Shown piece after piece: positions 4,251-49,344 of a stretch of DNA of 64,000 nucleotides. The position numbers and the translations under genes are program-made. The stretch is from positions 32,001-96,000 of the forward strand of contig CAWFGE010000004.1 in assembly GCA_963815195.1 (NCBI GenBank). Direction: 5' to 3'. The stretch's first letter is position 1; each line of letters starts with the position of its first letter. This DNA is from an uncultured Planctomycetaceae bacterium (GTDB lineage Bacteria; Planctomycetota; Planctomycetia; Planctomycetales; Planctomycetaceae). The notes beneath the pieces are model-generated. The model was not told the origin of the DNA. It did no database searches and was given only the letters and a program-made list of their open reading frames with translations.

Positions 4251-5460
4251 ATGATCGATATTCACCAATTCACCCGGCAATTGCAAAGGAAGAACGATTT
4301 CGAAGATCGTCCTCGTCGTCAGTGACGGCCTGGGCGGACTGCCGCTTAAGCCCGGCGGCAAAACGGAATTGGAGACCGCGAAGACGCCGAATCTCGATGC
4401 CCTCGCCCGCCGAGGCGTGTCGGGATTGAGCACGCCGGTGTTTCCCGGGATCGCGCCGGGCAGCGGGCCCGGGCACTTGGGGCTCTTCGGGTATGATCCG
4501 CTGAAATATCAAATCGGCCGCGGCGTGCTGGAGGCGTTGGGCATCGATTTCGATTTGGGGCCGAACGACGTGGCGATCCGCGGCAACTTTTGCACGCTGG
4601 ACGAGGCCGGCAATATCACCGACCGCCGAGCCGGGCGGATCGCCTCGGACATTGGAGCAAAACTCTGCGAGAAGCTCGATCAAATCCAAATTGCGGGCGT
4701 GGAAGTTTTCGTGCGGCCGGTGAAGGAATACCGGCTGGTGATCGTCCTGCGGGGCGAAGGGCTGACGGCGGGCATTCACGACACGGATCCCCAAGCCACG
4801 GGCGTGCCGCCGCTCGATCCCGTCCCGCAAAATCCCGATTCGCAATCCGCCGCGGAGATCATCCGGGAGTTTTTGCGCCAGGCCCGCGAAGTGCTGAAAG
4901 ACGATGCCCCGGCGAACTTTTTGACGCTCCGCGGGATTGCCAAGCGGCCGGAGATCCCCACGTTTGACGATGTGTACGGCACTCGGGCGTCGGCGATCGC
5001 GGTGTATCCGATGTATCGCGGTTTGGCGCGGCTGGTGCATATGGATGTGCTCGACGCCGGCAGCACATTGGACGATCAACTCGCCCGGCTGGAAGCCGTC
5101 TGGAACGATTACGACTTCTTCTTCGTGCACTACAAGTACACGGACTCGACCGGGGAAGACGGGAATTTCGACGCGAAGGTCGAGCGGACGGAGACGTTGG
5201 ATGCCGCAATTCCCCGCATCACGGCGCTCGAGCCGACGGTGCTGATCGTCACGGGCGACCACAGCACGCCGTCGAAATTGAAGTCCCACAGTTGGCATCC
5301 CGTGCCTGTGGTTTTGGCCGCGGAGACCTGCCGGTTCGACGGCTGCGAGTCGTTCGGGGAAAGCGAATGCCTGAAAGGAGGCTTGGGGCAGTTCGAGGCG
5401 AAATACCTGATGCCGTTGGCGTTGGCTCATGCCGGGCGATTGGAAAAGTTCGGCGCGTGA
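4251..5460 (+). CDS. apgM: 2,3-bisphosphoglycerate-independent phosphoglycerate mutase (ApgM type), frameshifted near 4298
   Basis: KIVLVVSDGLGG, PGSGPGHLGLFGYDP, TGDHSTP and HSWHPVP motifs; ATG at 4251 is one frame off the main ORF. Confidence 0.88.
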
Positions 5461-5655
5461 GAGGAAAACACATTCCAAAGAATGAGACGAGCCCGGAGGC
5501 TGAGGGGGCCTCCGGGCAGTCTGTCTCACGACATATCAAAAACGGGATTGAATAGGCGTGTGGGAGGCACGTCCGTGAGGTTCAATCCCTGGGTGGCCGA
5601 ATCTTCCAAGATTGTCGAGCAAGAAGGAAGCAGTCCCAACCGGACTTCCAATGCC

Positions 5656-7307: not shown

Positions 7308-8697
7308 TCATTTGCCGATGCAGAACTTGCTGAAAATGCGGTCCAGAATGTCGTCCGTATACACGCTTCCCAGAATCCGGCCCAGATGCTCGAGGGCCTG
7401 GTGGAGTTCCACCGCGATCAATTCATCCCCGGCACACAGCGTCGCCGCGCCCACCGCTTCCCGCAATGATTCGGCCGCCGAGGTCAAACTCTCCCGGCAG
7501 CGGGCGGCGGTGGTGCCGATCAACTGCCGGCTTCGCCCGGAGGCCGACGCCATCCGCCGGGCGATTTCCGCCTGAAGTTCCGGAAGCCCTTCCCCCGTGA
7601 GCGCCGACACGCGAACCGCCGGCGTTTCCTCATTGGGGAATGCAGGCAGGCTCGGCAAATCCGATTTCGTCCGCACCAGAACGAGCGGAACTTGCCGGGC
7701 GTCAAATTCCGCGAGCAGTTGCCGATTGATGCCGGCTTCGTCCGCGGAAACGTCGCTCGCGATGCAGTACAATAACAGATCGGCATTAGTGGAATGCTCG
7801 TGCCGGCGTTGGTCGGCTTCCCGCATCAGTTCTGTCGGGGCGGACTCCCAGCCGGCGGTGTCATAGAGTTCCAAGGCCAATCCGTACCAATCCGCCGCCG
7901 CGTAGAGCACGTCGCGGGTCGTGCCTTTGATGTCGGAGACGATCGCCGCCTCGTCACCGACGAGTGCATTGAACAGAAAACTTTTCCCCGCATTCGGCAG
8001 CCCCGCCAAAACAACCCGCAAACGCCCGGTGGATTGCATGCGGCTTTCCGCCTGCGTGGACAGCCGGCCGATCGTCTCCGCGGCGGCGTTCAAGCGGGCG
8101 ATGAGATCCGCGCGTTCGACGAACTCGATGTCCTCTTCGACGAAATCGAGGCCGGCTTCCAGATCGGACAGCAAATCGAGGAGGTCGCCACGCACCTCGG
8201 CGATTTTCCCGGACAGTCCGCCGCCAAGCTGTTTGAGAGCGGTCTCCAACTCCTCGTGGTCCCGGGCATCGATCACGCCGAGCACGGCCTCGGCCTCGAT
8301 CAAATCCAATCGCCCCGCCAGAAACGCCCGCAGCGTAAATTCCCCCGGACTGCGCCGCGCGAACACCGTGCCGAAATAATTCGGACAGCAGAAGCTCCAA
8401 AATCGGCGGGGAACCCACGGCGTGGATTTCCGCCAAGGGCTGCCCCGTGTAACTCCGGCGGGTCGGCCAGAACAGCACATCGGCCGGCACGGGAGGAAAA
8501 TCGCGTTCCACGTCCAATCGAAAGACCCCGTGAAACCGCCTCGGCAGCCGCGAATCGGCGGGTGGGGAAAATTCTTCGAGCACATCCAACAGCGCGGTTC
8601 GCACCTCAGGACCGCTGATGCGAATGATCCCCCGCGCCGCCGCACCGGGAGCCGACGCCAACGCCGCCACGGTATCATCAAGCTGGAAACTGGCCAT
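7308..8697 (-). CDS. mnmE: tRNA modification GTPase MnmE, frameshifted near 8349
   Basis: DTVAALAS N-terminus, PGEFTLRAFLAGRLDL, GLPNAGKS, GTTRD, DTAG and C-terminal FSKFCIGK; adjacent to yidC. Confidence 0.93.
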
Positions 8698-8821
8698 GCA
8701 TCAAAGGGAAGGAATGTGAGCGCCGACAATTCGACTCGCCAACCTCGATCCTCAATTGGAATCGCTCCGACGGCTTGGGCTGATTAGAGACACGACCCGA
8801 AGATTCCGTGATGACGAAACG

Positions 8822-10822
8822 CTACCGGCGGGTTTTGGATTTCTTGCCGCGACGTTTCGACGCGGTGTTCTGGCCTTTTTCGCGTCCGGCATTCTGGCCG
8901 GTCGGGTACAGTCCCCGACTCGCCGAGGCGGCCGCCGCGTTGTCGCCGGATTGGGAACCTTCACTCGCTTTTTTTTTGCCGATGTCCAAGAGTTTGCGTT
9001 CGCCCATGCCCCACAAACTGGAGGCGATAAAGTAGACGCACAAACCGGCCGGGACATGATAGAACAAGAAGCCCATGAAGATCATCATGAAGTTCATCAT
9101 CTTGTGCTGCATCTGGGCTTGCTCGTCGTCCGGATCGGGGGCCGGCATGAACATTTTCTGCTGGACGATGAACAACACCACCGTCACCATCGGCAGCAAA
9201 TTGAAGTTCCACCCGAGAAACGGCACGCGGAAGGGAAATGGAAACAACGCATCCGGGGCGGCCAGGTTGTCCACCCACAAAAACGGAGCGCCCCGCAAAT
9301 CGACCGCGTGGCCCAGGGCGCTATAGAGCCCAATGAAGATCGGCAACTGAAACACCATCGGCAAGCAGCCGGCGAAAGGGTTGTAGCCCGCGTCGCGGAA
9401 CAGGTCCATTTGGGCCTGGGCGAATTTTTGCTTGTCGTCGCCATACTTCTTTTTGAGTTCCTGCAGCTTCGGCTGGAGTTCCTTCATCCGGGCGGCGCTT
9501 TGGGCTTGCTTCCGGGACAGCGGAAACAACGCCCCCCGCACCATGATGGTCAAACAGATGATCGCCAGCCCATAGGGAAACAACAGGGCGTTGTGCAAAA
9601 ACGACAGCACCGCGAGCATGCCTTTGCTGATCCAGCCGAACCAGCCGAACTCGAGCACCGCCCCGGCTTGCATATTGTCCAAAAGCGCTTGCCGTTTGGG
9701 GCCGGCGTAGAGCGTGTAGTGATCCTCGAATTGGCCGTCCTTCGCCAGTTCGCGCGGTTTGGACGTCAGTTCGATGCTGACCTCGCTTGTCTGGGGCTCG
9801 TCCGTATCGATCCAAATGGCTTCCGGGGTGTAGGAGGCGATTTTGTCGGTCGTGGGCTCCTTGGAATCGTTGTAAATCAACGTCGCGAAAAACTGCCCGT
9901 CCACACCCACGTAGCGAAAGGGGGCGGACCATTCCTCCACGTCGTTCGCCTCGATGGATTTCACGAGATCCTTGGCGGTGACGGAGTCATCAGAGATTTT
10001 CCCGCCTTTGACGATCCCCAGCTTGATGTCGCGAAACTTGCGGGTGCTTTCGCGATCTTCCAACGGCATGCCCACGGGGCCTTGCAGCTTGTAGTGGACC
10101 TGGGCTTTTTCCGCCTGAAGGTTTTGAACCCGGACCGCCAAATGCAGGAAATAGCCTTCGGTGTTGGTGTCGCGATTCTCCTTCGAGTAGCCGCCTTTGC
10201 CGTTGCCTTTTTTCAGTTCGTAAAGTTTATCCAAGCGAAATTTTCCGGGGATTTCGTAGTGAAACACCGCCCTCGATTGGTTGGACTCTTTGTTGTCGTA
10301 GTCCCAGTCCACGGTTTTGAGGTTCACCCGCTCGGCGGCGAGCAGGCGGTCGATTTCGGGAAAGTCCGTCTGGAACGTGCGAAAGATTTCGCGGTTTTTG
10401 CCTTCGGTCGGCTCCGCCAACGTGAGGGGCTGCTTGTGATCGACCAGGTCGCGGTAGCGGGGATCGTTCAATTCGATTCGCGAGACGGCCGCCCCGGCGG
10501 TGGTGAGAAGCGCCCGGTAGAAGTAGCCGCTGTCGGGATCGAGCGAACCGATGGCGATGTTGTCCAAATGGGGATGCCGTTTGCGTTTTTGTTTTTGCCC
10601 GTCCGCTTGGGGCTTCGCGGGCTTCTCGGCAATGGCGGGGACGTGTTCCGGCTGTTTTGGGGGTTTGGGTTTCTCGCCGGGTTCATTTTTCCGCGCTGGG
10701 GCCGGCTGGCCGGCGTTTTGGCGCTGCGGCAGGAGTTTGGGAAGGATTAAAGTCTGCCAACTGATCAGCAGGAGTGCCGAAACCAGCACGAACAGCACGA
10801 CGCGTCGGGGGGAAAATTCCAT
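8822..10822 (-). CDS. yidC: Membrane protein insertase YidC
   Basis: YAGPK, YGLAIICLTIMVRG, MKELQPKL, NPFAGCLP and PAGLCVYF motifs. Confidence 0.95.
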   Translation of the reverse strand: MEFSPRRVVLFVLVSALLLISWQTLILPKLLPQRQNAGQPAPARKNEPGEKPKPPKQPEHVPAIAEKPAKPQADGQKQKRKRHPHLDNIAIGSLDPDSGYFYRALLTTAGAAVSRIELNDPRYRDLVDHKQPLTLAEPTEGKNREIFRTFQTDFPEIDRLLAAERVNLKTVDWDYDNKESNQSRAVFHYEIPGKFRLDKLYELKKGNGKGGYSKENRDTNTEGYFLHLAVRVQNLQAEKAQVHYKLQGPVGMPLEDRESTRKFRDIKLGIVKGGKISDDSVTAKDLVKSIEANDVEEWSAPFRYVGVDGQFFATLIYNDSKEPTTDKIASYTPEAIWIDTDEPQTSEVSIELTSKPRELAKDGQFEDHYTLYAGPKRQALLDNMQAGAVLEFGWFGWISKGMLAVLSFLHNALLFPYGLAIICLTIMVRGALFPLSRKQAQSAARMKELQPKLQELKKKYGDDKQKFAQAQMDLFRDAGYNPFAGCLPMVFQLPIFIGLYSALGHAVDLRGAPFLWVDNLAAPDALFPFPFRVPFLGWNFNLLPMVTVVLFIVQQKMFMPAPDPDDEQAQMQHKMMNFMMIFMGFLFYHVPAGLCVYFIASSLWGMGERKLLDIGKKKASEGSQSGDNAAAASASRGLYPTGQNAGREKGQNTASKRRGKKSKTRR

Positions 10823-10824
10823 AA

Positions 10825-11589
10825 TTACCGACCGTCCCTGAGACGGTCACCCAAGAAGTTGTCGAGGTCGGGGATGTTGTAAATCTTCTCGGCGGTTTTG
10901 CCGAAATCGTATTCGACCCGTTGGAACTTCACCGTGGACCCATCCGCGTCCGAACTTTCGATAATTACATAAGACGAGCGGTTGTCGCCGTTTCGCGGTT
11001 GTCCGACCGAACCGACGTTGATCAGCACTTTTGGCTCGCCCAGAGGGTATTTCATGTCGATTTCTTCGGGGGCGAGAAAGTTCAAATCCTCGGTGAAAAC
11101 GCCGGGGATGTGCGTATGCCCTTGGAAGCAATACTTCTTCACCAGGCCGAAAATGCGTTCCATTTTCCGCTGGTTGTAAATATCTTCGGGGAAGACGTAT
11201 TCGTTGAGGGGATTCCGCGCCGAGCCGTGGACAAAGAGGAAGTCCCCGTCGCGGTGCATGCGGGGCAACTCGCCGAGAAACTCCCACCGCTGTTTGTTGC
11301 CTTTGGGGTCGCCCGTTTCGAGCATTTTGCGGGTCCAGAAAATGGCCCGCTCGGCCCCGGCGTTAAACCCTTCCGGATCGAAGAGCGCGCCCTGGTCGTG
11401 GTTTCCCAACAGGCACATTTGGCAGTTTTCGATTACCAAATCGATGCATTCGCGGGGGTTGGGACCGTAACCAATGATGTCGCCCAGACAATAAATCTCG
11501 GAAACCCCTTGTTCTTTTGCGTGCGCGAGCACCGCCTCGAGGGCTTCGAGGTTTCCGTGAATATCGCTGATAAGTGCTTTCGAGGACAA
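10825..11589 (-). CDS. Metallophosphoesterase family protein
   Basis: [25 protein letters not shown] and NVGSVGQPR motifs; TTG start after AGGGAG. Confidence 0.9.
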
Positions 11590-41300: not shown

Positions 41301-44300
41301 TCAGTTACCGGGTAGTAACCACTCAAGGCCGGCTTCTATAAACAATAGCCGGGTTTGAACAGATTTGGGATTGAGCGAAAACTGATGCTGAATCGCCGTG
41401 CGATAGGCTAGGAGTTGCGGTTGATAGAACTCGCCGAGTTCGCCTAAGGCTTTCGACGCATTCTTATCGATATGATCGGTTTTGAAGTCGATCGCGTCGG
41501 CACCGACAACGTGCCCGTCCTGCACAATGAGCACCAGCCGGTCGATGATGCCGTGCGTCAAGAGGTTATTGTGGCGATAGGCGGTCGGGTACTCGTGATG
41601 GAGTTCCAACGCAACCGGGCCGGAGGACATGGAATGGCTCGTATAGGATTCCCGTGAGAGGATTTGCCGAACCGCCGGTTGAATCAGGGCTTTGCCGAAG
41701 TGTTCGATTTCTTGGTCCAGGTTCAATCGCGGGTGGAGGAATTGCCCGGCGAGTTGCTTGAGGGTTTCATCGTCCGGCGGACCTTCCGATGGCGCTGCGT
41801 CCAGCCAGTCCACGTGCTCGAGCCAGGCATGCCAAAGGCTGCCGCGCGTGCGGGAGTAAACGGAATCCTCGCGAAACGTTTGCCCGATCGAGACAATCGT
41901 TCCGCCTTCCAAATCCGAAGGGGTCTGGCGTTCCAAGCGGCGGGTGCGATGCAAAGCGGGCGGCTTCAATCGGAGGCTTAAGAGTTGCTCTTGGGGTGGT
42001 TCGCTTGTTGATTCTCTGTTAAGGGGTTGCCCGGCAAACCAGTGTTTGTCGCCATGCTCATAGAGCGTTTTTTCGGGCGGGATTTCCAGGCGGCCGTCGG
42101 TCAACGCCGACCTTAAGAGCCCGGCGTAGGTTTTGGGCAGCGAGCGTTCGTTCTCGCGGCTGGGGGCGACGATCATATAAAGCGCGTGCACCGCCCTGGT
42201 CATCGCGACATAGAGCAGGCAGAGGCTTTCGTTGTCGATTTGCTGATTGTAGTTTTCGAGCATCGCGTTAAACCGCGCCGGCAAGAGAGGCATGACTCTG
42301 CTGGGAATATAGCGGAAGACAGCCTCGATGGGGGCGGTGGGGTTTTTGCGGCCGACGATGACCGAGGGCGTCAATCCGCTCAATCGGCCGTCGAGTTCGG
42401 GGAGGACCACGATGTCAAACTGCAAGCCCTTCGATTGATGGATATTCATCACCCGCACGTCGGCGGCGCTCGGATCTTCCACCTTCGTGGCGGAGACCAT
42501 TTCGATAAAGTCCCCCGCCTGGAGGCTCGCCTGGTCTTCGTAGCGGTAGGCGAGGCTGACCAGTTGCATCAGCCGCGTGAGTTCGCGTTCGTTGCAGAAG
42601 GGCGTCAATTCCCGCACCCACTGATAGATCGTCCCCCCGTAGCCTGCTTCGAGCAACATTCGGCGGATGTCCAGCGACAACCGCCGGGCCGCGTCGTCGT
42701 CGGCGTAATCGGCAAAGCCCACGATCGTTCCCAGGCTGGAATGGGCCACGTGAAAGCGGGCGATGGTGTCCCCCGGATGGTCGGTGATCGCGAGGAGCGA
42801 AAGCACCAACTGCACGGCGGCGGAATCGAGCAGCGGGTTGCCGCCTTCTTCGCTGGCTTCGATGCCGTGCGTGTGGCGGAGTTCGTAAATCATCCGGGCG
42901 ACGGCCTGGTTCTTCCGCACGAGGATCCCGATCGAAGCCCCCGGCGTTTCGCGGTGGAGCCTGGCGACCTCGGCGGCCGCGTATTTCAACGTTTCGACGG
43001 CCTGGCTTTCATCTTCCTCGGCCTGGGTCGCGGTTTGGAGGACAGAGTAGCCGGGGAAGTCGCGGGCGGTGGTATGGGTTTGAAACCGCTTCCGCCAAAG
43101 CTCGGCGATGCCGGGCAGCTTGGACATGACCTTGTTGGAATCGAGCCGGCCGAACACGCGGTTGACGACATCGATCACGATCTGGCTCGAACGATAGCTG
43201 CGGGTCAGTTCGCGCTCGGTCAGCCGGGGCAATTCTTGATCGAGCGAGGCGAACAAATCCGCCACGCCGCCGCGCCAACCGTATATCGCCTGCTTCACGT
43301 CGCCGACGCAAAAAAACGACCGCGCGGGATCTTCCGCGGCGGCCTCCGCAAACGGGCGAAGCACCGTCCACTGGAGCAGCGACGTGTCCTGGAATTCATC
43401 CAGAAGCAAATGCCCCACATGGGCATCGAGCCGGAACTCCAACTGCCCCGAGTCCATGTCCTGGATCGCATTCGCGAGCAGTTGGGTGATGTCCTGGAAG
43501 CGGTAGGACCTTTGCTCGGCTTTCAAGCGTTCGTAGGAACGGTGAAAGTGATCCAAGAGCTTCCAGGTGGCTTCCGTCTGGTCGGCGATGCGGTTGACCA
43601 GCTGGGCCTTGACGTGCTCGATGATGGGCGCGTAAACCGCTCCGACTTCCGCCGGCACGAGCTTGTTGTAGTAGGTGGTTTTCCCTTCCAACAGAACTTT
43701 GATGAAACCCCCGCCGATCAGCTTGTCCCAATCGCCTTCGCTGGCGGTTTGCAAATCCCGCACGGCGGCGGTTTGAAAGCGCTTGTCGGGAAACCGGAGC
43801 GACGCGAGCGCGGAGAGGGCCTGTTCCCATTCCTCTTCGTCCAGCTTTTTGTAGCGATTGATCGGCTTCCACGCGGCGGGGATGTCTTCGCCGGCGGAGT
43901 CGGGGGTCGTTTCGAGATACAGGTTATAGAGGCCGTTTGCCGTTTGGCGGATTTGATCGCTGACGGCCCGGCTCACGTCGCCTTTGTTCAAGAGATGGAG
44001 CAGCGTGAGCAGTTCCGAGACGCTGCCCTCGGCCAGAACGTTTTGAATCGCCAACGAGCGGAGCCGCTGGTCGGCGACTTCATCCACAATGGCCCAACCG
44101 GGCGGCAAGCCGAGTTCCAATCCGAAACTGCCCGCGATTTGCACGAAAAAACTGTCGAGCGTGCTAATCCGCAGGCGGTGCAGATTGCGAATGAGTTTCG
44201 CCAACAGGTCCAGGCAGTCGGTCCGCTGGAAACTCTCGAGGGGGACATCTTCCCGAACCAGGCGGGAAAGTTCTTCGAGCTTTTGCGGATTGCCCGCGGC

Positions 44301-44540
44301 CTCGGCGAGACGCAGGACGACGCGGTCGAGAATCTCGCCGGCGGCTTTGCGGGCGAAGGTGGCGGCGAGGATTTCGTCCGGCCGGTCCGAGGCCCGCGCG
44401 AGCGCGATATAACGATTGGAAAGCTGGAACGTCTTTCCCGTGCCGGCGGAAGCGCGAATCACCTCGTTGGGAAACGCGACGTGGCTTCCCAACGAGGTGT
44501 TCTGTTCCTCGTCGTTCCAATCGAAGAGGGTTTGTCTCAC
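41301..44540 (-). CDS. addA: AddA/RecB-like UvrD helicase with C-terminal PD-(D/E)xK nuclease
   Basis: ASAGTGKT, LDEFQDTS, VGDVKQAIYGWRG, IHQSKGLQF, YVAMTRA and GIIDRL...DFKTD...QLLAY motifs. Confidence 0.85.
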   Translation of the reverse strand: MRQTLFDWNDEEQNTSLGSHVAFPNEVIRASAGTGKTFQLSNRYIALARASDRPDEILAATFARKAAGEILDRVVLRLAEAAGNPQKLEELSRLVREDVPLESFQRTDCLDLLAKLIRNLHRLRISTLDSFFVQIAGSFGLELGLPPGWAIVDEVADQRLRSLAIQNVLAEGSVSELLTLLHLLNKGDVSRAVSDQIRQTANGLYNLYLETTPDSAGEDIPAAWKPINRYKKLDEEEWEQALSALASLRFPDKRFQTAAVRDLQTASEGDWDKLIGGGFIKVLLEGKTTYYNKLVPAEVGAVYAPIIEHVKAQLVNRIADQTEATWKLLDHFHRSYERLKAEQRSYRFQDITQLLANAIQDMDSGQLEFRLDAHVGHLLLDEFQDTSLLQWTVLRPFAEAAAEDPARSFFCVGDVKQAIYGWRGGVADLFASLDQELPRLTERELTRSYRSSQIVIDVVNRVFGRLDSNKVMSKLPGIAELWRKRFQTHTTARDFPGYSVLQTATQAEEDESQAVETLKYAAAEVARLHRETPGASIGILVRKNQAVARMIYELRHTHGIEASEEGGNPLLDSAAVQLVLSLLAITDHPGDTIARFHVAHSSLGTIVGFADYADDDAARRLSLDIRRMLLEAGYGGTIYQWVRELTPFCNERELTRLMQLVSLAYRYEDQASLQAGDFIEMVSATKVEDPSAADVRVMNIHQSKGLQFDIVVLPELDGRLSGLTPSVIVGRKNPTAPIEAVFRYIPSRVMPLLPARFNAMLENYNQQIDNESLCLLYVAMTRAVHALYMIVAPSRENERSLPKTYAGLLRSALTDGRLEIPPEKTLYEHGDKHWFAGQPLNRESTSEPPQEQLLSLRLKPPALHRTRRLERQTPSDLEGGTIVSIGQTFREDSVYSRTRGSLWHAWLEHVDWLDAAPSEGPPDDETLKQLAGQFLHPRLNLDQEIEHFGKALIQPAVRQILSRESYTSHSMSSGPVALELHHEYPTAYRHNNLLTHGIIDRLVLIVQDGHVVGADAIDFKTDHIDKNASKALGELGEFYQPQLLAYRTAIQHQFSLNPKSVQTRLLFIEAGLEWLLPGN

Positions 44541-45316
44541 GGTTCGATTTCGTATCGCTTCAGGAAATCTTCCGGGATCTCCGCCGTCTTCTGGGCCACG
44601 AGGGCGAAATAAAACAGCGGGTGCCCTTCCATCGACAACCGATGGCGGTATTTCTCCAAATGATACAGTTCCAGATACTCCGAGAAAATGAGTTCGCGGA
44701 TGAATCGCGAAAATCCGGAGTCGTCGGACTTGTCCAGAAACGTCTCTTTGATGTTGAACGCGACCCAGCCGCCGACCTGAATGAACTGGAGCGCTTTAAA
44801 AAACGCCCGCGGCGGAATGTCGCCGAAGCCCAAAGCCGCCACCGAAGTCAGGCAGTCGAAGGACCAGTCGGCGATCTGTTCCTCCAGCTTGGGCGACAGG
44901 TCGGTGAAGTCGGCGACATAGTATTCATCATACACGAAGGGCCGATCGCGGTAGGCGGCGTCTTTGGCTTCGGGGATGATGTCCACACCCACGAGCCGGG
45001 CCACGCCTTTGGACTTCAAAATCTCGCCCATCATGCCGTTGCCCGCGCCGAGATCGAGCACGCGGAGTTCCGTGGGCGGCTTGTCCCCGCCTTCCAGCGT
45101 CCGGTAGAGGATTTCGCCGACTTTTTTCGGCGACGTGCATTTCAGCCGGTCGTAAAACAGTTGTTCGTAAAGTTTGGGCCTGAGATAGATTTGATTGTAG
45201 TCGTGAAAACGCAGCTTCGTTTTGCGATCGCCTTCCTCGATCAAATAGAAATAGACTTCGTCCTGGTTGAGGTCGGTGCTTTCTTGCGGCGGAAATTGAA
45301 TTCGGTGTCTAGACAT
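44537..45316 (-). CDS. Class I SAM-dependent methyltransferase
   Basis: VLDLGAGNG motif I and VGVD motif; stop overlaps the helicase GTG start. Confidence 0.85.
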   Translation of the reverse strand: MSRHRIQFPPQESTDLNQDEVYFYLIEEGDRKTKLRFHDYNQIYLRPKLYEQLFYDRLKCTSPKKVGEILYRTLEGGDKPPTELRVLDLGAGNGMMGEILKSKGVARLVGVDIIPEAKDAAYRDRPFVYDEYYVADFTDLSPKLEEQIADWSFDCLTSVAALGFGDIPPRAFFKALQFIQVGGWVAFNIKETFLDKSDDSGFSRFIRELIFSEYLELYHLEKYRHRLSMEGHPLFYFALVAQKTAEIPEDFLKRYEIEP

Positions 45317-45525
45317 TATGTCGCGCGTGCCCTCCTTAAAAAGAAAAACGGACGTTGGAAGATCGTCGGGGCGGTATTCCGTTTTTCCGTCCCGTTCGAT
45401 TCCAACGCGTGAAAACGATGGGCATCCCCAGGGAAAGGGAGAAATCCCGAATCCGGCGTGGGAGGATGCCCGTTCCCTTCCAACCCTACAAAACCCGGGC
45501 GGCGAAGGTAAGGGCAATCGGAAAA

Positions 45526-48500
45526 TCAGGCGGCCCCGCCGGCCGATTCGTCGGTTTTCAAGCTGGGGTGAAAATGCCGAATGCGGGTGACGGCCACCAG
45601 GCACGCCGCCTGCTCGCTGGGGCCGTGGGAGGCTTGAAACTCCTCGAGCAGCGGCAACAGAAATCCCGCGAACTCGCCGTCCTCGACCGCGGCGTCGCGG
45701 AGCGTTTCCACGAGCGCCAACTTCGCCTTGCGGTGGGGCAGCGGCTTTAAGCGGGTTTGGATCGTGCCCGCTTCCTCGCGGCGGGCTTCCGGACGGCCGG
45801 GCGGAAGCTCGAACAGCATCCGCCTTAAAAACCGCCTGAGCGCATCCGCCTCGGCGGGCAGGTTCTCCGGCTTCGGCGGAGCCCCCGTGCCCACGCTGTC
45901 TTCGGGAGATTTCGCCTCTTTTTTGCGTTTGCTCTTGAGCTGCGATTCGGGCAGCGGCGCGGGTTTCCAGTCCGACGTGATGCCCCGCGCGCGGTACAGC
46001 GACCAGAAGCTCTGAATCACGAACGCCCGCACCCGGCGGTCGGGGCTTTCGGTCAGGCGGAACAGTTCCGCCGGCAATTTCAATCGCGGATGCCGTTCGA
46101 TCAAGTCCATCCCCAACGCCCGCGTGCCCTCGTCCCGCGATTCGCAAAAGCTGTAAACCGCATCGGCCGTGAGCACCCTTGGATCAATCCGATACCGGCG
46201 GTGCTCGGTGGTGTCCTCCGCGGTCATCGCCTTCGCCACGAACTGCCGGACTTCCCCGTAAGGCGATTCGCACATCTCGATCAAACCTTCGATCGGCGGC
46301 GCCCAGCGGGCAAACTCATAACCGGCGATCTCAAGCGCAAACTCCCTGAGCGGCAATCGGCGTTCGAAAAACAACGGCTGCATGCGGTCGAAGGTGAGAA
46401 ACTCCGCGGGAATCTCCGCACCCGGATCGACCGGCCGGTCCGTCTCCGCAAGACAAATCTCGGGATGATGCCGGCGAAAATACTTCAGGGCAAACTGCCG
46501 GAGCGGCGCGTCCGCTTTGCCCTCGCTGGTGAGCATCTCCCACAGGCGTTCGCAGCCGGCGGTCACGGCATCGGCGGAGAACTCCCGCTCTTCGCCCGCG
46601 AGCCTTTGCAAGAATGCCGTCTCCGAAATGATCTTCAGCTCGGCCCCTTCCTCCATCAGCGACTCGGCTTTGACCTGCTTGCTGCCTTTTCGCCCCTGGC
46701 CATAAAGCGGGCTGCCCTCGTCGCCGATGACGAGGTAATTCAAGTTTTTGTTGACGGCCGAGGCCACCTTGCCGCCGGCTTCGCGGACTTTCTTCTGGGC
46801 TTCGCCGCGGCTCATCGTGGCGAGCTTGCCCGTGAACAGAAACGAATCCCCGCCCAGATCGACCGCGGGTTTCTTGGGCTCGGCTTTTTTCTTTTTGGAT
46901 TTTGCGGCGGGCTCGGGTTCCGGAGCCGCGTCTTTCGGAGCAAAATCCGCCGGCAAGAAGGCGCGGATCATCGTCTCCACCGCAAAGTCGTGATACCGCG
47001 GCTCGCTCCGCTGGACCAGTTCCATCAGCCATTCAAACCCCAACTGCCCCGGCGAAAACCGCCGCGGGTCGCTCAGCCAATGCAGAATCTCCGCCGAGAG
47101 TTGCTCATCGAAGTTCACGCCCCAATTCTTGACCGACGGGTAGTCCGACTTTTTCAGTTCTGCAATTTCGGGAGCGGCTTCGAAGGCGGGATGGTACGCC
47201 AATATTTTCAACCATTGGACGCCGACGGTTTCCGCTTTCAGCTTCCCTTCATCAATCCAGTTGGTGATGGACGCCGCCGCATGATTGTTGAGCATGGACC
47301 GCTTTAAGAAATCGGGAGCGAGTTCGTTCGCATCGAATTTTTGCAGTTCGCCCATCGCGAAGAGAATCAGGTTCCGAACCTGCCAATACGAAATGCGATC
47401 CGTGTCCACCCAATCGACAAGGTCCATGAAAAAATCGGGGCCGAGCTTTTTGGTGGGATGCACGTCCGGCAGGAGTTTTTGCGCGAACGCTTGCGCGGAT
47501 TCGTTTTCGCCCAACAGCCGTTCGCGGAACCACTCCGGGGTGAGTTCCTTCGCGCCGAAATGTTTGCGGATCATGTCCTGGGCCAGGTCGCCGCCGTGCT
47601 CGGTTTCGAGGAGCCGCCCCCAGGCGTCCAGGCCCACGTCTTTTCGCGGATCGCGGGCTTTGACGAGATCGAGCGCCAGCTTGTGGACGTGGGAGTTCGG
47701 ATTGTCGGCGAGGCGGATCAAATCCTCGATCGGCAAATCGCGGGCGTGGGTGCGGGCATAGTCGGCGGCATAGGCGCACGCCGAGTCGCTGGAAGAATCG
47801 AACAGCCGCAACACCGCGTCGTGCAAGCCCAGTTCGCGAAACGCCGCCTGCTCGAACTTGGGAACGTTCTTCAGGATCCATACGACGAACTCATCCACGA
47901 CGCCGCTGCCCGCGCTGACCAATCGCGCGACCCAATCCGGCTCGACTTCCCGCAGCGTCGCGCGGAAGTCGGTCTTCAAACCCTCCACGGCGAACTCGCG
48001 GATGTCGTCGGACTTGGCCCGCTCCAAAAGTGAAAACAACGGCCGGGGCGTTCGCTGCCAAAGCTCGCCGAACGCCCGCTGCTTGATGAGCGACTTGGGA
48101 CGCGAGCGGTAGCGAAACCGGCGGGCGGTGTAGCTGCCCGTCTCGTGAAACAGGATGTGGTTCAAAACCCAACACCGGGGCCAATACCCGCTGTGGAAAT
48201 CCTGCGGATAGTGCGCGAGGAAATCGACGCAGTGATCGGCATAGACCGCCGGCAGCGTTTGACCGGTCCGCCTCAAGAACCGCCACGCCCGCCGGACCAG
48301 ATAGCCCAACGTCATTTTGCTGACCGCGGGCGATCCCCAGCCCGCAAACGCCATGTCGAACCGGGCCGCGAGCGCCCCGTAGATTTCCAGATCGCCCCGG
48401 GCCTCGGCTTCCTTGAAAATCCGCTTGAGCGCCTTCCAAGGCCCGTAAGTCAAAGGCACCTTCGCGATAATCCGCAGCAAACACGAGCGGGCAAAGACGC

Positions 48501-48810
48501 CGTTGTCTTCCCAGAGCACGCTGAGGATTTCGTGCAGCCGAAGCTTGTCCGGAAGCGGCACCTCCGCCTCGGGCGACTCAAGGGCCTTGAGCGTTTCCAC
48601 GCGGTAATGGGCCTGCTCTTCCCGCGGCTTCTTGCGGAACGCGGGCGACGTGATCTCCCGCACGAATTTCTCGAACGTCAGCGCCCCCTCGCGCACGGGC
48701 GCTTCCGCTTCGGGCGGCGGCGCGGACGCGAGCCGCTCGACATAAGCGACGAGTTCCGGGTCGCTCGTTTCCCAAGCCCGCCGAATGTCATCCAATGCGA
48801 GTTGCGCCAT
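45526..48810 (-). CDS. Large helical-repeat (ARM/HEAT-like) protein with an internal BRCT domain; candidate retron-associated protein
   Basis: BRCT: FLFTGKLATMSRGEAQKKVREAGGKVASAVNKNLNYLVIG...KGSK..KA...IISE; the rest is amphipathic-helical. Confidence 0.8.
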   Translation of the reverse strand: MAQLALDDIRRAWETSDPELVAYVERLASAPPPEAEAPVREGALTFEKFVREITSPAFRKKPREEQAHYRVETLKALESPEAEVPLPDKLRLHEILSVLWEDNGVFARSCLLRIIAKVPLTYGPWKALKRIFKEAEARGDLEIYGALAARFDMAFAGWGSPAVSKMTLGYLVRRAWRFLRRTGQTLPAVYADHCVDFLAHYPQDFHSGYWPRCWVLNHILFHETGSYTARRFRYRSRPKSLIKQRAFGELWQRTPRPLFSLLERAKSDDIREFAVEGLKTDFRATLREVEPDWVARLVSAGSGVVDEFVVWILKNVPKFEQAAFRELGLHDAVLRLFDSSSDSACAYAADYARTHARDLPIEDLIRLADNPNSHVHKLALDLVKARDPRKDVGLDAWGRLLETEHGGDLAQDMIRKHFGAKELTPEWFRERLLGENESAQAFAQKLLPDVHPTKKLGPDFFMDLVDWVDTDRISYWQVRNLILFAMGELQKFDANELAPDFLKRSMLNNHAAASITNWIDEGKLKAETVGVQWLKILAYHPAFEAAPEIAELKKSDYPSVKNWGVNFDEQLSAEILHWLSDPRRFSPGQLGFEWLMELVQRSEPRYHDFAVETMIRAFLPADFAPKDAAPEPEPAAKSKKKKAEPKKPAVDLGGDSFLFTGKLATMSRGEAQKKVREAGGKVASAVNKNLNYLVIGDEGSPLYGQGRKGSKQVKAESLMEEGAELKIISETAFLQRLAGEEREFSADAVTAGCERLWEMLTSEGKADAPLRQFALKYFRRHHPEICLAETDRPVDPGAEIPAEFLTFDRMQPLFFERRLPLREFALEIAGYEFARWAPPIEGLIEMCESPYGEVRQFVAKAMTAEDTTEHRRYRIDPRVLTADAVYSFCESRDEGTRALGMDLIERHPRLKLPAELFRLTESPDRRVRAFVIQSFWSLYRARGITSDWKPAPLPESQLKSKRKKEAKSPEDSVGTGAPPKPENLPAEADALRRFLRRMLFELPPGRPEARREEAGTIQTRLKPLPHRKAKLALVETLRDAAVEDGEFAGFLLPLLEEFQASHGPSEQAACLVAVTRIRHFHPSLKTDESAGGAA

Positions 48811-48892
48811 GAGAGATGCTCTCTAACAGAAACAGTCTCGATGTCCGACATTAGCCCCCTGCGGCTAATGAATGAGAGAAAAAGGTAAAAAA

Positions 48893-48963
48893 GAATGACC
48901 GAGCACCAATTCCGATTGTTGCCGAGCGCGGGCACGTTCTGGGTCATTGTGTGTCGGTCATTC
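48893..48963. other. Stem-loop between the ncRNA and the BRCT gene
   Basis: gaatgaccga (48893-48902) pairs with tcggtcattc (48954-48963). Confidence 0.55.
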
Positions 48964-48964
48964 C

Positions 48965-49218
48965 TGTTCCTGAGAGCCGTCTACTTCTAGACCTGGGACA
49001 TGGAAGGCTCACTGACCCGCCGTCCCGGTAGTGCAATTACCTGCAGCGGAACCACGATGGGCGGGGTTGATCCAGACCGCTGCGAGGTAATTGCACTACC
49101 GGGACGATCAGCGGGTCTGAAACAGCCTTCCTTGTGAAGAGTGACAGGCAAAACGCTAGAACGGCGCAACGCCGCTCGCGGTGCAAGGCACCAAGCTAGA
49201 CCTGGACTCTCGGAAACA
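48965..49218 (-). ncRNA. Retron msr-msd non-coding RNA, Mx162-like
   Basis: a2/a1 imperfect inverted repeats (49197-49218 / 48965-48983); candidate branch G at 49196; msr hairpins at 49180-49192 and 49159-49177; msd hairpin 49002-49131 with a perfect 22-bp core. Confidence 0.8.
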
Positions 49219-49265
49219 ACACCTGTCTATCAAACTTGAGGGGCAAACGCAAGCATATGGCGATC

Positions 49266-49332
49266 CGCTTACTTTGTGCGCGGCTCTCCGCAGGTTTCGC
49301 GGCCGGTTAAAGAGCCACGCACGCAGTAAGCG
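49266..49332. repeat. Inverted repeat downstream of DUF58 (REP-like or terminator)
   Basis: ccgcttactttgtgcgcggctct pairs with agagccacgcacgcagtaagcgg. Confidence 0.6.
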
Positions 49333-49344
49333 GGAATCTCCTCC

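Follow-up and report, generated by a model that had tools for sequence, protein, structure and literature searches.

Type XIII is the family of the first retron to be found. It corresponds to RT clade 10 and is represented by Retron-Mxa1/Mx162, Mxa2/Mx65, Sau1/Sa163 and Nex2/Ne144, as set out in Table 1 of Mestre 2020 (PMC7736814). The main text of that paper gives SWIM/winged-helix and HEAT/ARM proteins as the partners of this type, sometimes with two HEAT/ARM proteins (clusters 259_1 and 1688_1), defines retrons as contiguous cassettes, and describes a search conducted in the vicinity of the reverse transcriptase (RT) gene. Mx162 is described with a 162-nt msDNA, a 71-nt msr and an 8-nt overlap, and the priming context is CAGC in both Mx162 and Sa163, TAGC being the commonest overall (Simon 2019, PMC6868368). 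The SPIRE survey (2026, PMC13712802) reports 26 type XIII retrons in Planctomycetota, and its de novo RNA search took in the 600 bp upstream of the RT. In Retron-Sen2 (St85)/Vmi1, as outlined in PMC11701397, the RNA gene lies ahead of an accessory gene and the RT further downstream, with one small intervening gene in a single cassette.

We analyzed an RNA element on the minus strand of contig C4 in an 8.87-Mb planctomycete genome assembled in 25 contigs, and determined its structure, homology and covariation, the identity of the neighboring gene and the locations of the partner genes. The window, by which we mean the whole stretch of 64,000 nt under study, is C4 positions 32001-96000. In our judgment the element is likely the msr-msd gene of a type XIII retron of a subtype with the gene order HEAT1-HEAT2-SWIM-RT, whose ancestral operon has been broken up in this genome and whose RNA is used in trans with an RT encoded on contig C23. 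This is not a new kind of system: the retron class and the occurrence of type XIII in Planctomycetota are known, and the departure from published descriptions lies in the layout, with the parts of the retron unlinked.

The locus resembles type XIII retrons in its a1/a2 arms, priming G, short msr hairpins and long msd hairpin, as well as in an RT that matches RT_XIII and in its SWIM and HEAT/ARM partners, including the two-HEAT/ARM variant (PMC7736814). It differs from the retron definition in the main text of the same paper in that the RNA gene and the RT do not form one contiguous cassette, the RT lying here on another contig. Its priming context is UAGC, whereas Mx162 and Sa163 have CAGC (PMC6868368). 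With Retron-Sen2/Vmi1 as presented in PMC11701397 it shares the order of RNA, accessory gene and RT, but relatives of the candidate have three intervening genes (~11.5 kb) in place of one, the RNA has a terminator-like end of its own, and in this genome the parts are unlinked.

The RNA element and its flanking signals

The features of the element and its surroundings, all on the minus strand and numbered within the window, are as follows.

49218-48965, minus strand: predicted retron msr-msd RNA gene
49197-49218, minus strand: a1, 5' arm of the closing stem, from sequence and duplex energy with a2
49196, minus strand: predicted priming (branching) guanosine in the context UAGC, opposite template G48984
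49150-49195, minus strand: predicted msr, with hairpin 1 (49192-49180), conserved hairpin 2 (49177-49159) and linker; R1 match (see below)
48984-49149, minus strand: predicted msd template region; stems checked, the 3' limit near 49149 being a guess
48965-48983, minus strand: a2, 3' arm of the closing stem, with GAAG just before it, from sequence and duplex energy
49224-49252, minus strand: promoter-like pair TTGCGT - 17 nt - TAGACA, with 5 nt between it and a1, read by eye
48887-48964, minus strand: terminator-like long stem (~48965-48891) followed by UUUUUU (48892-48887), from the fold
45526-48810, minus strand: HEAT1, an intact 1094-aa HEAT/ARM protein of type XIII that includes a BRCT domain, from PADLOC, Pfam and homologues

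An earlier note, made from the sequence, had described the arms, hairpins and stems of this element and a priming geometry of G49196 opposite G48984, and every one of its coordinates holds on re-reading the minus strand. The a1/a2 pairing consists of 5 inner bp, an internal loop and 12 outer positions that include one C.A mismatch. In the msr, hairpin 1 is GGUGC-CUU-GCACC and hairpin 2 is GAGCGGCG-UUG-CGCCGUUC. The msd has a perfect stem of 22 bp (49021-49042/49085-49106) that cannot be extended, together with two further stems, 49002-49009/49124-49131 and 49014-49020/49111-49117, both of which are perfect complements. The note had also proposed a folding check; a 266-nt RNA folded at -140.6 kcal/mol, against -92.4 +/- 5.2 kcal/mol for shuffled sequences (z = -9.4; none of 200 shuffles equaled it). 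An Rfam search of the window gave no match at gathering scores. Matches of microRNA type appeared at loose thresholds (E <= 10), far below gathering, and are due to the long hairpin and nothing more.

The RNA gene seems to stand by itself, flanked by a promoter-like site and a terminator-like hairpin. A TTG(A/C)(A/G)T-N17-TA.A.. pair precedes the first RNA copy at seven related loci (L100, L101, L102, L112, L108, G087 and G251), and the pair at 49224-49252 may be the promoter of the RNA gene; a scan for the sigma-70 consensus returned no promoter site. Of 11 orthologous copies, 7 have a hairpin and U-run after the RNA. A look-up of RNA sequencing runs found none that contains this stretch. A simple terminator scan, limited to loops of 3-8, returned no site and did not pick up the long terminator-like stem.

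Assignment to type XIII

To compare the element with RNAs of known RTs, we gathered RT_XIII genes from 401 Planctomycetota genomes, 33 of which had one at E <= 1e-110. Of the 30 loci retrieved, 25 have a conserved hairpin, CGG(C/U)G-NNN-CGCCG, ahead of the RT, the other five being L060, L064, L075 (cut off), L084 and L085. The 25 loci minus L057, which contains Ns, plus two same-genus loci gave a training set of 26 RNAs. Their boundaries were anchored on motifs; RNAduplex applied to long flanks over-extended. These RT-adjacent RNAs have a common plan: an a1 end of the form ...(U/C)A|G|(C/A), the conserved hairpin, a linker that often ends in CUUCAC, the msd hairpin, and an a2 with GAAG before it in many cases. 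All of these elements are present in the candidate. Its priming G occupies the same position as in the related RNAs (...UA|G|C...), its GAAG|UA junction recurs in L074 and L080, and its distance of 213 nt from the G to a2 is identical to that in L072, L073, L074 and L077.

In a full-length alignment of the 26 RNAs (A1), the 3' ends of the short group did not line up, and thus only the msr part was modeled. The resulting covariance model, R1, spans 87 positions and was built with the candidate left out; its 8-bp hairpin shows covariation in 4 pairs. R1 scored the candidate at 30.7 bits over 49177-49121, with an E value of 1.2e-5 when the window was searched. Across the whole 8.87-Mb genome the candidate had an E value of 0.0017 and was the sole match outside the training set below E = 1, the next matches having E > 2. 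Similarly, an nhmmer profile built without the candidate returned it as the sole non-training hit in the whole genome (E 0.019). The search with covariance models that the earlier note had proposed thus finds the candidate with a model of type XIII RT-adjacent RNAs. The close likeness to Mx162 itself that the earlier note proposed is a lead; the class shared with Mx162 is established, and the RNA at 49218-48965 is identified as a type XIII (Mx162-class) msr-msd gene. The retron reading of the earlier note is borne out and narrowed to type XIII by the R1 match, the HEAT/ARM neighbor, covariation across orthologues and matches in Nannocystis, the last two of which are described below.

Distances from the priming G to a2 in the loci examined (L056-L083, L053 and L054) fall into classes of 211-213, 173-180 and 113-121 nt, which suggests that type XIII may hold discrete msDNA size classes.

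Position of the RNA in related genomes

A DNA search in 40 relatives gave only three matches of 23-25 nt (E 0.001-0.01), because the RNA is too diverged for BLAST, and a protein search with HEAT1 in 60 genomes of the family gave mostly BRCT-only matches, which were set aside. The same-genus genomes G002 and G003 were considered as sources of orthologues and rejected: their type XIII locus is a different, canonical one, arranged as WGR/HEAT, SWIM, RNA, RT, and they were kept for comparison only.

A HEAT1 scan with one genome per species yielded 16 loci in which the protein is 52-63% identical to HEAT1 over its full length. They belong to Pirellulaceae, Singulisphaera, Gemmataceae, Paludisphaera, other planctomycete records, Nannocystis species, two Myxococcota MAGs and one Desulfobacterales MAG. 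HEAT1, HEAT2, SWIM and RT genes stand in a row at 13 of the 16, and the other three loci are cut by contig ends. The subtype is characterized by a HEAT1 of ~1090 aa, a HEAT2 of ~2100 aa, an RT of ~430 aa and a SWIM/winged-helix protein.

At seven planctomycete loci (L100, L101, L102, L112, L108, L103 and L106), members of the candidate's RNA family are found upstream of HEAT1, the copies at L103 and L106 being partial at a contig start. In this arrangement the RNA is ~13 kb upstream of the RT, with three genes (~11.5 kb) between them. In L100, from a Pirellulaceae MAG (4870-5623), there are two tandem copies with identical msr-msd and differing a1/a2 arms, each self-complementary; in L108, from a Pirellulales MAG (8577-9796), three diverged copies stand in tandem. 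Another arrangement was seen in G087 and its congener G251, both of which are among the loci with no RNA upstream of the RT, the SWIM gene abutting the RT gene. The operon of these two genomes consists of HEAT1 (PDLC02921, 1023.5 bits), HEAT2 (PDLC02919, 2066 aa, 1503.6 bits), SWIM_XIII and RT_XIII, and the RT is closely followed on its downstream side by an RNA plainly homologous to the candidate.

At the eight Myxococcota HEAT1 loci, no copy of the RNA family was present within the stretch retrieved. We then built a second covariance model, R2, from the 5' 117 positions of ten family members, candidate included, and applied it to five Myxococcota genomes to which these loci led, four of which gave strong matches. 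Two Nannocystis genomes have two tandem copies each at 85-87 bits (for example L116, G469:C1:9285030-9285479), and two Myxococcota MAGs have one copy each, at 80 and 65 bits. No type XIII protein is encoded within 1.5 kb of these RNAs. In the Nannocystis genomes the RNA lies on the same contig as the operon RT at distances of 5.62 Mb and 3.39 Mb, and in the MAGs the two are on different contigs, so that the RNA is unlinked from the operon in all four. The RNAs of N. exedens and N. punicea (group F) resemble the candidate over the full length of R2, with the same msr hairpins, msd base and loop motifs, and are likewise unlinked from the HEAT1-HEAT2-SWIM-RT operon; they differ from it in being tandem pairs away from any type XIII gene, whereas the candidate is one copy beside HEAT1. 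Since the RNA gene takes different positions among relatives, its placement is not fixed with respect to the protein genes, which is what action in trans would predict. The candidate's genome contains one further R2 match, at C12:370817-370926 (24.5 bits), which was rejected as chance; its fold was no better than those of shuffles (z -0.10).

Covariation and arm pairing

Eleven full-length RNA copies, candidate included, were aligned (A3). RNAalifold predicted 60 pairs, 35 of them with compensatory changes. For pair counting we used the same structure with the inner a1/a2 stem added, giving 62 pairs, and 36 of these show double-sided changes, so that the covariation test in homologous planctomycete loci suggested by the earlier note comes out in favor of its structure. 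Paired cells make up 90.0% in A3, against 71.2% in shuffles and 37-45% when partners were slid by 1-3 columns. None of 500 shuffles reached any of the five measures used, a count that is not a probability because the sequences are related, and the slid control is the fairer one. In helix 5 of the alignment, which lies in the msd, 26 of 27 pairs have changes on both sides.

The outer a1/a2 arms are out of register between sequences, and therefore duplex energies were compared instead. The candidate's a1 and a2 form a duplex of -21.0 kcal/mol, against a mean of -10.3 kcal/mol for its a1 with the a2 arms of the ten orthologues, the best non-cognate value being -14.4 kcal/mol. The cognate pair was much better than the non-cognate mean in all 11 copies, indicating that the arms differ in sequence while their complementarity is kept.

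Two Singulisphaera species (L101 and L102) have an identical msr and a mid-msd stem that is rewritten with full compensation; judged from this pair, the msd stem is evolving fast under structural constraint.

Protein partners in this genome

A search with RVT_1 found no reverse transcriptase on contig C4. Six matches are present in the genome, on C10, C13, C14 (two), C20 and C23. The parts of the subtype were located as follows.

C4: RNA and HEAT1
C8, 535717-542049: HEAT2
C23, 245061-246908: SWIM
C23, 234504-235767: RT (type XIII)

All five parts are present, scattered over three contigs, with only the RNA and HEAT1 still adjacent. The scatter is not an effect of contig ends, since each part is located far from the ends of a long contig. 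The set of type XIII RT, SWIM and HEAT/ARM proteins is thus found in the genome in unlinked form. HEAT1 and SWIM are intact, and the reading frames of RT and HEAT2 are in doubt: in the assembly the C23 RT carries a +1 frameshift where the N-terminal extension meets the RT domain, and HEAT2 on C8 shows two apparent frame changes, near 539,26x-539,32x and 536,91x-536,97x. Two of these three sites are outside homopolymers. SWIM and RT are separated (C23:237750-242334; L028:2751-7338) by a DDE transposase gene and by an istA/istB pair of IS21 type, both with multiple copies in the genome, some of them 98-100% identical. At least that break is therefore due to insertion sequences.

The frame changes, the multi-copy insertion sequences and the spread over three contigs would all fit a relic, that is, a well-preserved RNA left over from an operon broken by insertion sequences, in a decaying system that makes no msDNA. 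We regard this as unlikely. An independent contig from the soil-metagenome run X1 covers L019:10018-10733 and has one base fewer at L019:10451 (= C23:235450), the very position predicted for the RT frameshift, which this contig therefore lacks; there is no other difference, and the depth is only 4.5. Runs X2, X3 and X4 contributed no useful coverage at the RT locus. Because the lost base coincides with the frameshift site, an assembly error or a variant is likelier than a fixed pseudogene, and the assembly may carry indel errors. Against decay also stand the intact HEAT1 and SWIM genes, the a1/a2 arms, which are unique in sequence yet complementary, and the retention of every conserved motif in the RNA. 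Unlinked RNA genes, moreover, are the rule in the four Myxococcota genomes above.

A second type XIII set, also split, was observed in the same genome. Its RT (557 aa) and its own RNA stand alone on C13, and its short HEAT/ARM and SWIM genes are on C12.

C13:1180378-1182057: second-set RT, type XIII (508.6 bits), with an RNA of another group just upstream (L018 ~11060-11230)
C12:1097002-1100451: second-set short HEAT/ARM gene and SWIM gene

Could the candidate RNA be used by this C13 RT instead of the C23 RT? The C13 enzyme is intact and of the right type, and the conserved msr hairpin is common to all type XIII RNAs, but it has an adjacent RNA of its own from a different group, and in the RT tree the RT clades match the RNA groups one to one. 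The C23 RT is sister to the RT of G087 (SH-aLRT 100), the partner of the candidate's RNA type, and is 54% identical to it; in a separate comparison with the G087 RT the identity was 58.6% for the C23 RT and only 43.5% for the C13 RT. Use by the C13 RT is accordingly very improbable. No R1 or R2 match is present near the C23 RT, and the pairing of the candidate RNA with this enzyme is predicted from phylogenetic parallels only.

A third retron-like RT is encoded at C20:330437-331867, with PADLOC RT_other/RT_outgroup as its best match (496 bits). NAxxH and VTG are the usual motifs of retron RTs, and by eye the C20 RT has neither.

Proposed working and significance

In the working that we propose for the type XIII reading, transcription, priming, msDNA length, pairing with the C23 RT and any biological function are all predicted. 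The RNA would be transcribed on its own, and a1 would pair with a2. The C23 RT would recognize the msr hairpins and start synthesis at the 2'-OH of G49196, and the msd would be copied from G48984 towards ~49149 to give a hairpin msDNA corresponding to the plus strand from 48984. From the 213-nt distance between the priming G and a2, and provided that the msr has a length like that of Mx162, this msDNA would be roughly 160-166 nt long. It would then act with the SWIM and HEAT proteins. The ancestral operon would have been broken up in this genome, at least partly by insertion sequences, and with the operon broken up the RNA must be used in trans; the RNA gene thus probably acts at a distance from its RT.

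More tentatively, it is possible that in the whole HEAT1-HEAT2-SWIM-RT sub-lineage the gene for the template RNA is autonomous, acts in trans from a promoter and terminator of its own, can be placed anywhere in the chromosome and can be multiplied into arrays. The present genome would then be the extreme case, a distributed retron whose five parts, scattered over three contigs by insertion sequences, still work together; we hold this wider proposal to be somewhat more doubtful than not. If it is true, RT-centered searches systematically miss such genes, and contiguity is no requirement of retron biology. Our literature search found no account of an unlinked type XIII RNA, and the supplementary data of Mestre 2020 may bear on RNA positions. 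An RNA family that lies 13 kb from the RT, on its far side or megabases away gives a concrete reason why some retron RTs seem to lack an RNA. The unlinked parts in this genome constitute a natural test of a retron RNA working in trans, and the 15 natural RNA copies from 10 genomes (the 11 aligned plus 4 in two Nannocystis), with their hypervariable msd stems, are a resource for the Mx162 class.

Neighboring genes and repeats

HEAT1, which starts 155 nt downstream of a2, matched PADLOC HEAT-ARM_XIII (PDLC02921) with 1200.1 bits; Pfam recognized only the BRCT domain. Dispersal in the manner of a REP or MITE, which the earlier note had set against its own retron reading, does not apply to the RNA: it is single-copy in the genome, the only matches at E < 1 being itself and its own inverted arm, and the remaining 12 matches are 15-26 nt long (E >= 2.2). 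That the element might not be a retron RNA at all, and might be a dispersed palindromic repeat or a cis-acting leader of HEAT1, as its place just upstream of HEAT1 and a true REP-like palindrome adjoining it at 49265-49333 could suggest, can be dismissed, since the single copy removes the REP/MITE reading and the positions of the RNA in G087, G251 (downstream of the RT) and Nannocystis (megabases from the operon) show that it is not tied to the HEAT1 5' end, from which a terminator-like hairpin separates it here.

The 3' side of HEAT1 (41301-45412) holds, directly after HEAT1, genes for a class I methyltransferase and for a UvrD-type helicase of 1079 aa that carries a PD-(D/E)XK nuclease at its C-terminus, both of which are absent from the homologous HEAT1-HEAT2-SWIM-RT operons. 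Upstream of the RNA are genes for MoxR, DUF58 and DUF4350 proteins (Pfam).

The palindromic unit at 49265-49333, which separates the RNA from the DUF58 gene and has the arms GAGCC.CGCAC...AGTAAGCGG, is outside the retron. It belongs to a genome-wide REP-like repeat with 377 arm matches at up to 3 substitutions, and one such unit also lies upstream of the C13 retron RNA.
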